From Candidatus Latescibacterota bacterium (GTDB lineage Bacteria; Latescibacterota; UBA2968; UBA8231), in NCBI GenBank assembly GCA_965197905.1, contig CBDAOB010000005.1:1216001-1280000 (forward strand): 64,000 bases of DNA, in the 5' to 3' direction. The position numbers and the translations under genes are program-made. The notes under the pieces were generated by a model that ran no database searches, was not told where the DNA came from, and saw only the letters and a list, made by a program, of their open reading frames with translations. Positions 2,798-7,999 of this stretch are shown in pieces; the stretch's first letter is position 1; each line of letters begins with the position of its first letter.

Positions 2798-5536
2798 CTA
2801 GTTGGATGATGCGTCACTCGCAGACTCGAGGCGTACCGGACAGACCTTCAACTCCGCGGTGTAGGTAATCGGATCGTAGCCCGAACCGGTAAGCACATTG
2901 ACCGGCACGTCGCTAAAACTGAAACTGGCGAAGACCGTCCCTCGCGGGGATCGACTCGTCGCTTTCACCTTGATCGAAATTGAACCGCGGCGGCTCGTCA
3001 TACTGCACCAACCGCCATCCTCCAACCCGAGCGAGACGACATCTTTCGGATGCACCTCCAGCGTTTCTTCAGCAAGGAGATAGTCGATGCCCTGAGAGCG
3101 ACCGGTCTGGGTGCGCGTGTGATAGGATTGGAGGCGTCTACCGGTGGTGAGCCAGATCGGAAACTCGTCGTCGATGGACTCGGCCGGGTCGCGATACCCG
3201 ATCACCTTGAAGATACCTCTTCCGTTCTTGAACTCGTTCTCATGCAAAATGGGGGTGCCAGGATGGCCCTTGTGCGGTACCGGCCACTGATACTCACCGT
3301 TCTCTATCAGATTCCAATCGAGGCCGGCGTAGATCGGAGAAACACTGCAAAGCTCCTCGAACACCTCCCTGGGCGACTCGAAATCGAATCCTGAGAATCC
3401 CAGTCGACGGGCAATGGCCGCCACGATCCACCAGTCAGGTTTGGCTTCACCGGCAGGTTCCACGGCGCCCCTTAAGCGCTGGATGCGGCGTTCGGTATTC
3501 GTGCATGAGCCTTCGGTCTCACCCCACGCGGTGGCGGGGAACACGACATCTGCGAGCTCCGCCGTCTCCGTCATGAAGATGTCGATTACGACCAGATGCT
3601 CGAGGCTGCCTAGCGCATGCTCGCAGTGGCTCCGATCGGGGTCGGAGACCAGTGTGTTTTCGCCGTCTATCAGCATTGCATGGATCGTCTCCCCGCACTG
3701 CTCGAGCGCCTGGACCTTGGTGATGCCGTTCTCGCACTCGATCTCCTTCCCGTACAAGGATTTGAACTTCTTCTGGCTTTCCTGCAGGGTAACCGCCTGA
3801 AAACCGGGAAAGTTGGCCGGTACTGCGCCGCAGTCGCCAGCCCCCTGGATATTGTTCTGTCCACGCATCGGATTGATGCCCGCCCCCTCGATGCCGATGT
3901 TTCCCGTCATCAAAGCCAGATTGCAAAGGCTCTGCACGTTGTCCACGCCACAGATATGTTCGGTTATCCCCAGGGTGTAATAGATGGCACCTCTGTCGGC
4001 TGCGCCGTACCAAAGTGCCGCTGTTTCGATGTCGGCTGCTGGCACTCCAGTAATGGTCGAAGCCCATTCCGGTGAAAATGCCTTCACATGTTCGAGGAAC
4101 TGCTCCGCCCCGGCGGTGCGGCTCTCGATAAACCCTTCATCGGAAAGGCCTTCGCGCTGGATCACGTGAGCCATGCCCAAGAGCAGAGCAACGTCCGAAC
4201 CCACGCGTATAGGCAGATAGAGATCCGCCAGCTCCGCCAGGTGAATTCTTCTGGGATCGGCGACGACCATGCGGGCACCTTGTCTGAGCGCTTTTTTCAA
4301 GCGCGTCGCGGCTACCGGATGGCACTCGGTCATGTTTGTTCCGATGCAGAAAATCAGATCCGGTTTTTCCATGTCCACCAGCGGATTTGACATGGCCCCG
4401 CGCCCGATCGTGGCTGCCAGACCGGCAACCGTTGGGGCGTGTCAGGCACGGCTGCAGTTGTCAATCTGATGGGTGCCGAATCCGGCACGGATGAACTTTT
4501 GCATCACATAGGCCGCTTCGTTCGGAGCACGGCCGGATGCCACTCCGTATATGCCGTGGCGACCGTGTTTCTGAAAAGCCTGACGAAATCCCTCCGCCGC
4601 CTTGTCGAGGGCATCGTCCCAGCTTGCCGGCTTTAACGAACCGTCGGAATCGCGTAGGTAGGGTGTCGTGAGGCGATCCGGATGTTGCACGAAGTCGAAT
4701 GCGTACTGCCCCTTAACGCAGAGTGCGCCCTCGTTGGCGGGACCGTCCATGGCTGGATGAATACCGACGATTCGCTCCTCATCGGTCAGTATGTCCATTG
4801 AACATCCGACGCCGCAATACGGGCACACAGTCCGGGTCTTCTCCGGTTTCTGGACCGATGACGCCCGCATCGCTTTGCGGTCCCCCAAGGCACCTGTCGG
4901 ACAGGTCTGAACACATTGTCCGCAGAAGGTGCAGGCGGAGTCCTTGAGCTTGCCGTTGAACTCGGTGGAGATCTGGGTGTGGAATCCTCGGTTCATGATG
5001 TTGATGGCGTGGTCGCCCTCCTGTTCGGCGCAGACTCGCACGCAGCGGTAACAGGAGATACATTGATCGTAGTCGCGCAGGATGAACGGATTGTCATCCT
5101 CCTTGTTCGACGTGCCCGATTTCTCGCCCGCAAAGCGTCCACTTGCGGCGGAGTAGCGTTCGACCAGCACGGACAGCTCTTGCGAGGCGTATCCCCGTAG
5201 CGGTTCCACCTCCACGCGCGGATTCTCCGATGCCACCATCTCCAGCAATACTCGTCGGTGTTTTTCGACATCCGTGGAGGCGGTTTGCACGACCATGCCC
5301 GGTTCCGCCTGCGCAGTGCAGGAGGCAACCGGATTGCGGATCCCTTCGATTTCGACTACGCACAGTCGACAACTGCCGAACGGTTCAAGTCGGGGATCGT
5401 AGCAGAGGGTGGGAATCTGGCGGGCATGACGAGAAGCGACCTCGTAGATGGTTTCACCCGGCTCGAAGGTCACTTCTTTGCCGTCCAGCACCATGATATA
5501 CGTGGCGACGGTCGGTTCGGCGGTGACACTGCTCAT
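2798..5536 (-). CDS. fdhF: Formate dehydrogenase alpha (molybdo/tungsto-pterin) subunit, selenocysteine-containing, with N-terminal 2Fe-2S/4Fe-4S domains
   Basis: Track ORFs 4442..5695 and 2798..4393 are in the same frame and joined by TGA at 4442-4444 in the context IDNCSRA-U-HAPTVAGL, the catalytic Sec/Cys-His position. N-terminal CxxxxxxxxxxCxxC, CxxCxxCxxxC (x2) and CPYCGVGC..CVKG motifs; 'RGQNNIQG', 'TNTERR', 'LTTGR', 'ELKVC'. Start at MSSVT (5536), about 912 aa. Confidence 0.95.
4412..4444 (-). promoter_or_regulatory. Sec UGA codon plus bacterial SECIS hairpin
   Basis: mRNA reads UGA CAC GCC CCA AC GGUUGCC GGUCU GGCAGCC: a 7-bp stem with a GGUCU loop starting 11 nt after the UGA, closely resembling the E. 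coli fdhF SECIS region. Confidence 0.88.
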
Positions 5537-5559: not shown

Positions 5560-7218
5560 TTATTTCAGATGATCCGCGACGCGTTCCGGAAAATACTTCA
5601 CCAGGCTTTCCGTTATGTTTGGCGCGGCCATGCCCAGGCCGCAGGCGCTGGTGGCCATCATGGTGCTCCCGATATCGCTCACTTCCTCCAACCATTCACG
5701 TTCGCTAACCGGACCGGCACTGCCATCCAGCCGTTCGGCAAGCCGTTTGGTGCCGATGCGACAAGGGAAGCATTTACCACACGATTCCTCGGCAAAGAAT
5801 TCCATCGCCTGCCTGGCGATCTCCACCATGTCGCGGCTGTCGTCGAAAACCATGATCCCCCCGGCTCCGAGAAACGAACCTTTGCTCTTGATGCTGGGCT
5901 CGTCGAGGGTAACCCGGAGATCGTCGCCGGCCAGGAACCCACCCGAAAGACCGGCCATGGTCACCGCTTGAATCGCGCGACCGGCTGGAGGACCGCCGGC
6001 CCAATCGTTTAGGAGGGTGTCGAGAGGCAGCCCCAAAGGCACCTCGTAGTTTCCAGGTCTATGGATATCTCCAGAGAGGCTCACCACCTTCGTGCCGGCA
6101 TGACCGTTGCGTCCAAGACTGCGATACCATTCGGCCCCATGTATGAAAATTGGCGGGACCGAAGCGAGGGTTTCGACGTTGTTGACCGCCGTCGGCAGGT
6201 TTTCGAACCCGTGGGTTACCGGGAAGGGAGGCCGGTTTCTAGGGAGGGGACGTTTGCTCTCCAGGCTGTTGAGCAGCGAGCCTTCCTCACCGCAGATGTA
6301 GGCGCCGGCGCCCCGCCTGAGGTTGACGTGGAAATCAAAGGTGCCCAGCGTTTGCTGTCCCAGGTAGCCGGCGCCCTCCGCTTCGAAAAGAGCCTTTTCC
6401 AAGACGGAGAAGGTTTCAGGATACTCGTAACGTAGATAGATGAAACCTCGTGTCGCCCCGGTTGCATACGCGGCGATCGCCATGCCTTCCAGGACCGCAT
6501 GGGGGTCGTAGTCCAGCAGGGCGCGATCCTTGAAGCAACCCGGTTCTCCCTCGTCGGCGTTGCAGACGATGGTTTTGGGAACTCCAGGTGCGGTGGCCAC
6601 AGCTTTCCATTTGACGCCCGTGGGAAATCCAGCGCCGCCCCGTCCAGCCAGTTTGCTCTCCGCAACCAATTCGAGTGTTTGGTCTGGGCTCATCTCACGC
6701 ACGGCACGCTCGAGTCCGCCGTAACCCCCCACCTGGCGGTAGCCTTCGAGGGAAGGTCGGTTCGGTTCGCGTATGCCGGCGAACACGCATTCTGCCGCGC
6801 CTCCGGGAGGCGGCGGCGGAAGCGGCGAGCTGCGTTCGGCAGCCGGCGTGCCGGGGGAGCCTGTCAGCACTCGATTTCCCAAGATGATCGGAATCGGATC
6901 GTCACAGCGTCCCGCACAGGGCATGGAGACGGCCCCTTTGGTTTGATGCAGCAGGGCGTCAGCGCCGTGCATTCTGCAGATCGGACCCGTGCAGACCCGA
7001 GCTTGGGCGTGGGCGCCTTCCTCGCGACCCAGATGGTGGTAAAAGGTCAGGGTTCCGAAGACTTCAGCGACCGGCAGGTTCAAAGCGCCCGCAATAGATT
7101 GTACTGCCGCGGCCGAGACGAAACTGTCTCGCTCACAAAAGGCGTGGAAGAGGGGAAGCAACGGAGCCGGCTCGTTGCGCCAACGCTGCAGAATCTGCTC
7201 GTCTGTGGTTGTGGTCAT
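5560..7218 (-). CDS. NuoE/NuoF-like fusion: NAD(H)/FMN-binding diaphorase subunit of the formate dehydrogenase
   Basis: N-terminal NuoE-like 'TFYHH..CTGPIC...CAGRC'; NuoF motifs 'GRGGAGFPTG.KW', 'CNADEGEPG.FKDR', 'GAGAYICGEE' and 'ESCGKCFPCR.G...C'. Start at MTTTT (7218). Confidence 0.92.
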   Translation of the reverse strand: MTTTTDEQILQRWRNEPAPLLPLFHAFCERDSFVSAAAVQSIAGALNLPVAEVFGTLTFYHHLGREEGAHAQARVCTGPICRMHGADALLHQTKGAVSMPCAGRCDDPIPIILGNRVLTGSPGTPAAERSSPLPPPPPGGAAECVFAGIREPNRPSLEGYRQVGGYGGLERAVREMSPDQTLELVAESKLAGRGGAGFPTGVKWKAVATAPGVPKTIVCNADEGEPGCFKDRALLDYDPHAVLEGMAIAAYATGATRGFIYLRYEYPETFSVLEKALFEAEGAGYLGQQTLGTFDFHVNLRRGAGAYICGEEGSLLNSLESKRPLPRNRPPFPVTHGFENLPTAVNNVETLASVPPIFIHGAEWYRSLGRNGHAGTKVVSLSGDIHRPGNYEVPLGLPLDTLLNDWAGGPPAGRAIQAVTMAGLSGGFLAGDDLRVTLDEPSIKSKGSFLGAGGIMVFDDSRDMVEIARQAMEFFAEESCGKCFPCRIGTKRLAERLDGSAGPVSEREWLEEVSDIGSTMMATSACGLGMAAPNITESLVKYFPERVADHLK

Positions 7219-7315
7219 GAATTTCCCGCGACATTCAAAGTCATGTAACGTAATATATATATACAGGGGGGTAAACGAAGGGAGACGGAGAGCTGCGAGA
7301 TTCGATATTACGCAC

Positions 7316-7377
7316 AAAAAAAGCGCGCTTCCTCTTTCCGGATTGCCTTGGAGACAATCCAGTCCGAAGAAGCGCGC
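7316..7377 (-). terminator. Intrinsic terminator-like hairpin about 100 nt upstream of the FDH operon
   Basis: Minus strand GCGCGCUUCUUC...(GGAUUGUC UCCAA GGCAAUCC)...GAGGAAGCGCGC followed by U7; G-U pairs support the minus orientation. Confidence 0.75.
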
Positions 7378-7450
7378 AAGCGGGTACCACTCAGAGACAT
7401 CTTTCGTTTAGCAATAGACGTGCCACCATGGGCCGACCGCTGCGGAGTAT
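7316..7450 (-). ncRNA. Candidate structured leader RNA / riboswitch or sRNA (class not recognised)
   Basis: A nested stem set (CGCAGCGG/CCGCUUGCG, CCAU/GUGG, ACGUCU/AGAUGU) lies immediately 5' of the terminator and slightly overlaps its left arm. Confidence 0.4.
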
Positions 7451-7597
7451 CCATAAGTGGGGGTTTATACAAATGGTTACAGGTAACGAATAAGGAATGT
7501 TTCGGGCTATCGGATGACGCACACGGCGAAGATTTTTCTCCTGGAGCGGAAACCTTTCCGTCAGTGTCGTCTCTGCGTCCTAACTTAAGTCCACAGC

Positions 7598-7626
7598 TTG
7601 ACATAACAAATGTGTTTATCTATATT
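7598..7626 (+). promoter_or_regulatory. Sigma-70-type promoter for 7697..7999
   Basis: TTGACA-N17-TATATT. Confidence 0.7.
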
Positions 7627-7696: not shown

Positions 7697-7999
7697 ATGG
7701 TCTGGACTATTCTCGGGCTGCTGTGCGTCATGGCTACGAAGTTTCTCACTGCGGTGAGACTGCGTGGCTTGAAGGCGAAACTTGAGGCTATCCAACCCGA
7801 AATTGACGAGGTGCGCTACAAGGTAGCAGAGGCCGAGGACAGCTACGATACCTTGAAGCTGAAGGTCGAGGAGAAGGAGAAGCTCCTCAACAACCTCAAA
7901 GATGTCGTCAGAAATCTTGAGGATAGTCTGAAACAGCCGGCAGAAGACCGGGAGTCCTACGAACGCGTCCAACTCATGGAAGCCGAAAGCGGCGCCTGA
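7697..7999 (+). CDS. Small membrane-anchored coiled-coil protein, hypothetical
   Basis: 100 aa; N-terminal hydrophobic helix then E/K/L-rich heptads; GAGG RBS, with its own promoter and terminator. Confidence 0.8.
   Translation: MVWTILGLLCVMATKFLTAVRLRGLKAKLEAIQPEIDEVRYKVAEAEDSYDTLKLKVEEKEKLLNNLKDVVRNLEDSLKQPAEDRESYERVQLMEAESGA

Follow-up and report, generated by a model that had tools for sequence, protein, structure and literature searches.

A 64,000-nucleotide stretch of DNA from a Candidatus Latescibacterota genome, referred to here as the window, carries on its minus strand an intrinsic terminator ahead of a formate dehydrogenase (FDH) operon, and the question raised by this locus is which RNA the terminator ends. 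An earlier, sequence-only reading had noted that no protein gene lies upstream for it to end, and no minus-strand gene was found there. That reading favored an aptamer with an expression platform governing the FDH operon and named a stand-alone small RNA (sRNA) as the alternative. The explanation that is considered reasonably probable as a whole is a stand-alone, sigma54-dependent flagellar sRNA of approximately 84 nucleotides (nt) that is predicted to pair with flgM mRNA and likely represses it.

The locus and the proposed riboswitch

The strings named in the sequence-only reading were all present at their positions. The terminator hairpin (7377 to 7323, minus strand), followed by U7 (7322 to 7316), had a folding energy of −39.2 kcal/mol (z = −5.95), matched by none of 200 shuffles, and its distance to the nuoEF start, previously put at about 100 nt, was measured as 98 nt to the ATG at position 7218. 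The 3-nt overlap described between the terminator's left arm and the 3′ strand of a nested upstream element was also present. Considered as neighbors only, the downstream genes encode a fused NuoE/NuoF-like subunit (5560 to 7218, minus strand; NCBIfam) and the FDH alpha subunit (2798 to 5536, minus strand). An in-frame TGA in the latter (4444 to 4442), located within the active-site stretch DNCSRA-U-HAPT, likely encodes selenocysteine, and the gene was broken in two there by ORF callers. The string TTTACC-N17-TACGTT, proposed earlier as a promoter, was found at 7275 to 7247 (minus strand) and likely gives the FDH operon a sigma70-type promoter of its own; it is kept in genomes G002 and G001, and similar boxes also precede several nuoEF orthologues that lack the sRNA. 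On the plus strand, a divergent sigma70 promoter (7598 to 7626) and a 100-amino-acid (aa) ORF (7697 to 7999) together constitute a frequent upstream neighbor in the window's family; the ORF encodes a membrane-anchored coiled coil that belongs to no family.

The nested element of approximately 70 nt, interpreted earlier as an aptamer, did not stand out as a structure (z = −0.95, with 33 of 200 shuffles doing as well). It folded as described only if excised, and the minimum free energy structure of the whole 161-nt region was without its outer stems. Among 30 homologues, the inner ACGUCU/AGAUGU helix was paired in 77 of 180 cells, and the outer stems, which break in orthologues, were paired in 0 to 4 of the 4 genomes sharing the FDH context. 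The TG-TATAAA box noted just upstream was also set aside, with its TG out of register, by sequence, for an extended −10 element and the box itself not conserved. Overlooked in that reading was a sigma54 promoter within the supposed aptamer (7410 to 7425, minus strand), consisting of a −24 box TGGCACG (7425 to 7419) and a −12 box TTGCT (7414 to 7410), with columns that were invariant in 32 homologues. TGGCACG-N4-TTGCT is the sigma54 −24/−12 consensus. Because transcription is predicted to start near 7399, the left half of the "aptamer" would be promoter DNA; the transcribed stretch ahead of the terminator is predicted to comprise only about 22 nt. A sigma54 promoter can pass for an aptamer stem.

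The element was not recognized as any known RNA class; Rfam 15 gave nothing near the gathering score in the window, 8 homologous loci, or 4 side loci, and no match at an E value of ≤10 around the element. A transcription-terminating riboswitch was rejected, there being no conserved, covarying aptamer and no consistent placement 5′ of related co-oriented genes. A riboswitch or attenuator of the FDH operon in particular, which was the main idea of the earlier reading, is extremely improbable. The nearness of the terminator to nuoEF and the repetition of the element-nuoEF adjacency in G001, G002, and G015 speak for it, but the aptamer helices vary, and nuoEF follows the element in only 4 of 41 genomes. 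In the others, the next gene is convergent (at least 11 genomes), co-oriented (9), without a BLAST hit (14), or cut off with the contig (3); it is aroA-like in 9 of the 41. Furthermore, among the 30 nuoEF loci retrieved when 61 genomes were searched, the element was upstream only in G000, G001, G002, and G015, the remaining 26 being without it, and FDH has promoter-like boxes of its own. The FDH adjacency is thus incidental, given how few genomes have nuoEF next and how mixed the other neighbors are. The element is linked with flagella, not with the Mo/W, NAD, Se, or C1 signals suggested earlier as ligands. From the stand-alone alternative, the sRNA and the placement of FDH on its own downstream promoter were retained, and the promoter of the sRNA was reassigned from the TATAAA box to the sigma54 site.

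Promoter, seed, and terminator as one unit

The predicted sRNA spans approximately 84 nt (7316 to 7399, minus strand), with the start inferred from sigma54 geometry to within ±2 nt. It comprises a conserved 5′ seed (nt 1 to 19, CUCUGAGUGGUACCCGCUU; 7378 to 7396, minus strand), which is complementary to the 5′ regions of flgM and DUF5610 mRNAs and is the predicted pairing region, and the intrinsic terminator (hairpin plus U7; 7316 to 7377, minus strand). Alignment of four genomes (G000, G001, G002, and G015) showed that TGGCA, TTGC, CTCTGAGTG..CCCGC, the hairpin, and the U tract are kept. A promoter-plus-seed pattern matched in 17 of 61 genomes and in none of the controls, and in a species collection it matched 31 stretches labeled as Latescibacterota, Gemmatimonadota, or uncultured, with one labeled as Planctomycetota; the carrier genomes likely form one class of Latescibacterota. 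Two pattern matches (L063 and L076), incorrectly spaced and lacking a terminator, were dismissed as chance. Seed nt 1 to 9 were invariant in 32 homologues, as the search pattern had demanded, and members found by a search model showed single changes. This model, based on sequence only and built from promoter and seed with the terminator left out, produced 42 full-length matches in 41 of 132 genomes of the class (E ≤ 2.2e-6), the next score being 0.007.

All 10 members added by the terminator-free model proved to have a terminator. Hairpin and U tract were found in 39 of the 41 genomes, with RNA lengths of 67 to 88 nt, the remaining two being cut by contig ends, and the U tract was always on the promoter's strand at a fixed distance. 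The basal terminator stem was paired in 98.9% of cells, and 8 of its 10 pairs showed compensatory changes (0 of 500 shuffles), as counted on a subset of 9 homologues; with all 30 homologues aligned by MAFFT, RNAalifold was uninformative, since their hairpins vary in length. A metagenome scan with the seed only returned 11 matches, several of them nearly identical, and 10 of these had both promoter and terminator. No full-length match was found in 36 genomes from other classes of the phylum, and no second copy of the element was found in G000. Promoter, seed, and terminator are kept together as one unit, independent of FDH.

Two further candidates were discarded: eight weak model matches (in G008, G029, G118, and others), considered as diverged copies, were plain sigma54 promoters or coding DNA, and a small seed hairpin, although paired in 82% of cells, showed zero compensatory changes and is not claimed. 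At three loci (L223, L229, and L230), 15 nt of the RNA 5′ end are duplicated, so that 30 nt separate the full seed from the −12 box.

The element is very probably a small RNA. That it acts solely at the DNA level, as a sigma54 site with an operator and a hairpin serving mainly to terminate convergent genes, is very unlikely. Such a role would suit the downstream neighbors, which are often convergent, and four RNA runs of close relatives, in which contigs covered the divergent ORF at 7697 to 7999 and nuoEF and none covered the element; these comparisons were made at the contig level (4 to 5% word share) and are blind to short RNA. It fits poorly with the strand and spacing of the U tract, with the preservation of the unit beside co-oriented neighbors, and with two mRNAs that mirror changes in the seed. 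Hfq, ProQ, and Jag_N (Jag/KhpB) were not found in G000, which is 91% complete, so the long pairing predicted for the sRNA would work without them.

Association with flagella and predicted mRNA targets

Flagellin domains were detected in 52 of the 132 class genomes, and the distribution of the RNA followed them closely: 39 genomes had both, 2 had the RNA only, 13 had flagellin only, and 78 had neither, counts in which related, nonindependent genomes are treated as separate. The RNA was thus present in 2 of 80 genomes lacking flagellin and missing from 13 of 52 flagellated ones. Among the 31 genomes of genus g13, RNA and flagellin occurred in exactly the same 5. Since rpoN was nearly universal (128 of 132 genomes), the pattern of absence is not explained by loss of sigma54. 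The two carriers without flagellin were G100, a genome that is 80% complete, and G028, in which joint decay was seen (−24 box lost, seed changed, and DUF5610 frameshifted). A shared lifestyle change could strip many genes at once. Across the class, up to 10 flagellin-domain matches per genome were counted, and whole genera lose flagella while rpoN stays. Membership of the RNA in the flagellar regulon is considered highly likely.

Upstream of the promoter, a palindrome (CGGAAAGGTTTCCG; 7547 to 7560, minus strand) was predicted as an activator site, to be bound by a flagellar enhancer-binding protein (8.4 bits, with a P of 0.16 on its own), and a weaker match (AGAAAAATCTTCG; 7527 to 7539, minus strand), which is best in G002 and nearly copied in G001, may be a second. 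The corresponding motif, GGnAAnnnTTTCC, was learned from 24 flgB promoters only. Upstream of the 41 RNAs it averaged 8.6 bits, compared with 3.4 ± 0.5 in shuffles, with matches clustering near −90, −113, and −134. Among G000 promoters, the scores were 12 to 19 for five flagellar sigma54 promoters, 8.4 for the sRNA promoter, and ≥7 for 4 of 22 other candidates. The spacer between activator sites and promoter (7461 to 7500, minus strand), which contains the TATAAA of the earlier reading, was AT rich (61% versus 47% farther upstream in 41 homologues) and is a possible IHF-type bending site, its match to the IHF consensus being 7.44 versus 6.91 ± 0.10 in shuffled spacers. FlbD and ftr sites are among the subjects treated in PMC3930126. 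G000 encodes rpoN and 23 enhancer-binding (activator) domains, and we infer that the protein driving flgB and flgF, as one of these 23 candidates, also switches the sRNA on.

Targets were chosen after G000 had been scanned (post hoc). An unconstrained duplex scan of the seed against 5,471 G000 genes was not significant, with best duplexes of −29.9 versus −27.7 to −36.9 for 8 shuffled seeds; the top match was at C4:1573634, and the second was a DUF5610 gene behind a sigma28-like promoter. The DUF5610 site was the best seed-anchored site of the genome and ranked first among 26 strict sigma28-type promoters. The flgM leader ranked 6th of 1,228 sigma28-like boxes and 4th of the 26 stricter ones. 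Both FliA and FlgM are present in G000, FlgM falling slightly below the NCBIfam cutoff.

In the window's family (f1), seed nt 13 to 19 are predicted to pair with the 5′ end of the flgM leader and nt 1 to 11 just 5′ of the ribosome-binding site. For 16 of the 17 carriers, the half-site for nt 1 to 5 ended 10 to 16 nt ahead of the AUG. Pairing with the leader was significant at P ≤ 0.05 for 14 of the 17 (mean z = −2.9) and for 3 of 7 genomes without detected RNA (mean z = −1.1); flgM was unusable in G132, G036, G163, G133, G164, G018, G034, G012, and G023. The leader of G005, scored apart from the main set, had a z of −2.6. Predicted binding energies in 8 genomes ranged from −13.5 to −23.1 kcal/mol, as raw values with no shuffled control. 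A hairpin is inserted between the half-sites in 5 leaders, and both half-sites were retained upon cofolding. Seed nt 18 matched flgM as U-A in 12 of 12 genomes and as C-G in 5 of 5.

For DUF5610, two sites were predicted, one in the leader and one at codons 5 to 8. In family f1, the 5′ region scored against the RNA of its own genome reached P ≤ 0.05 for 16 of the 20 carriers and for none of 6 noncarriers; the comparison excluded G040, G038, and G122, whose starts could not be resolved, and G162, in which the region scanned contained no promoter box. The site is kept in G162, where no RNA was detected. At codons 5 to 8, 16 of the 20 paired 8 to 11 of 11 nt, and the site was lost in 4 g13 genomes. 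Codon 6 ended in T in 16 of 16 genomes with the site (genome use, 9 to 16%). Seed nt 10 paired with DUF5610 as G-C in 11 genomes (in a shifted register in G021) and as U-A in 5. As related genomes are not independent, each compensatory change in either mRNA may be one event. No paper on DUF5610 was found, and this unstudied family becomes tied to flagella and sigma28-type promoters.

The flgB 5′ regions, used as a control, had a mean z of +0.13 against the seed (23 genomes), and flagellin mRNAs had no seed site. A 13-bp match before flgB was discarded as a target, as it lies over the promoter itself. In families f2 to f4, the 5′ half of the seed was unchanged, the two-part flgM site was absent from the 3 leaders examined, and DUF5610 pairing was found in 0 of 8 genomes. 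The flagellar clusters of G098, G059, G097, and G015, in which flgM was incompletely covered, contained no shared target. On this evidence, pairing of the RNA with flgM or DUF5610 mRNA is predicted as probable for family f1.

Several loci touching on these mRNAs were also recorded. In six f2/f4 genomes (G117, G099, G098, G097, G122, and G120), the DUF5610 gene lies 5 to 15 kb from the RNA gene, without predicted pairing. The flgM leader of G008 (L326) contains a strong seed complement with shifted bases, and no RNA was found in this genome, for which the leader may predict a diverged copy. L364 (G000:C4:1171638, minus strand) combines a sigma28-type promoter, a partial seed complement at the 5′ end, an ORF of about 23 codons with a ribosome-binding site, and a terminator; it is possibly a small late-class transcript and a third target.

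If these predictions hold, the enhancer-binding protein of flgB and flgF would also turn the RNA on, together with the middle (hook/basal-body) genes. In family f1, the RNA would then bind the flgM leader at its start and before the ribosome-binding site and the DUF5610 mRNA in the leader and at codons 5 to 8, translation of the anti-sigma factor would drop, and FliA would be freed sooner for the flagellin genes. Repression is the predicted outcome because the pairing site on flgM adjoins the ribosome-binding site and that on DUF5610 spans early codons; expression alongside the middle genes and pairing in vivo are likewise presumed.

The main rival on the sign of regulation retains the same RNA and sites and proposes that pairing shields the 5′ ends, stabilizing or activating the flgM and DUF5610 mRNAs and holding FliA back during hook building. 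It appears unlikely. One half-site does lie at the extreme 5′ end of both sigma28-type transcripts, and in genus g12, which lacks the RNA, 3 of 4 flgM leaders (L335, L337, and L354) take up the seed-binding stretch in an internal hairpin, resembling a built-in 5′ stem. Against stabilization, the other half-site is beside the flgM ribosome-binding site, at the distance given above, the DUF5610 site extends into the coding region, and the known analogue FlmE is described as a repressor (PMC11187230).

Two further kinds of RNA candidate were observed. In G042, a sigma28-type promoter precedes a 17-nt perfect complement of the genome's own sRNA seed and a terminator (z = −3.2) between convergent genes (L255:1480-1585; G042:C2:1943102, plus strand), making this, in the single genome where it was seen, a candidate for an antisense RNA driven by sigma28. 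In G040 (L296:1353-1567), G055 (L297:1369-1583), and G119 (L293:1371-1585), a paralogous RNA behind an orthologous coiled-coil gene shares the 3′ seed half and terminator and has a different 5′ part, a hairpin with a CGGAG loop and compensatory changes; it had no Rfam match, and in G040 a second copy follows in tandem, behind a sigma70-like box.

Such RNAs bear on a second rival, also improbable and to a similar degree, by which the true conserved partner of the sigma54 flagellar sRNA is either a protein or a second RNA, in a sponge or antisense pair, with the matches to flgM and DUF5610 being secondary or a chance inheritance. The conservation of the 5′ seed half in f2 to f4, where both mRNA sites are missing, the G042 candidate, the paralogous RNA of three f2/f3 genomes, and the co-occurrence of CsrA in 31 of 41 carriers are consistent with this. 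The paired substitutions at seed nt 10 and 18 and the half-sites kept around inserted hairpins argue instead for the mRNAs, and a CsrB-type decoy is disfavored because 24 of 39 RNAs have no mostly unpaired GGA and 10 carriers lack CsrA. Beyond the preferred reading of flgM repression, a broader scheme is put forward tentatively: an undescribed, chaperone-independent RNA layer, with an origin separate from that of Campylobacter FlmE, might clamp the 5′ ends of sigma28 transcripts (flgM and DUF5610) through a two-block, hairpin-tolerant duplex, and in other families the RNA might be linked to paralogous RNAs and to a sigma28-driven antisense RNA that would turn it off once FliA is free.

Comparison with known systems

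Vibrio Qrr and enterobacterial GlmY/GlmZ are stand-alone sRNA genes with a sigma54 promoter, an enhancer site, and an intrinsic terminator. The Latescibacterota RNA gene has the same layout, but it has no Rfam match, Hfq was not found in G000, and it is connected with flagella, whereas those RNAs are tied to quorum sensing or envelope sugar. Decoys of the CsrB/RsmY type carry arrays of GGA motifs in loops. As with these, CsrA is often encoded by the flagellated carriers, but the RNA has at most two mostly unpaired GGA motifs and its conserved part is the seed.

In the literature searched, a sigma54-type, flagella-linked sRNA family with flgM and DUF5610 as predicted targets was undescribed. 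Among the matches listed, there was no mention of a small RNA with sigma54 in Latescibacter, and no description was found of a Latescibacter noncoding RNA or motif or of a structured RNA with flgM, although motif tables in supplements could hold this RNA. The predicted pairing is the first sRNA-target pair predicted for this bacterial group.

As described in PMC11187230, Escherichia coli UhpU, MotR, FliX, and FlgO and Campylobacter jejuni CJnc170/FlmR are late-class (sigma28) sRNAs of the flagellar hierarchy, whereas the RNA studied here is predicted to be middle class and to act on sigma28-type mRNAs. The closest counterpart described there is C. jejuni CJnc230/FlmE, an RpoN-dependent sRNA that is coexpressed with the middle genes of the flagellar hierarchy, pairs close to the ribosome-binding site of flgM through a 12-nt anti-Shine-Dalgarno (anti-SD) stretch between two stems, represses FlgM, and raises late genes; it is processed from flgE mRNA, downstream of flgE, and is reported from Campylobacter species (PMC11187230). 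Common to both are RpoN/sigma54 control and the region of the flgM ribosome-binding site, with repression shown for FlmE and predicted here. The gene of the Latescibacterota RNA, in contrast, stands alone, more than 1 Mb away from the flgE cluster of contig C5, and has a sigma54 promoter to itself; the RNA is predicted to pair through a 5′ seed, in two blocks beside the SD, and belongs to another phylum. By prediction it would act like FlmE without a sign of kinship, a distinction drawn from the described features of FlmE rather than from its sequence. RpoN-dependent sRNA control of the FlgM-FliA checkpoint was found only for Campylobacter in the literature searched, and if the predictions are true, a second, apparently unrelated case in a distant, uncultured phylum would suggest a convergent design of the middle-to-late flagellar switch.
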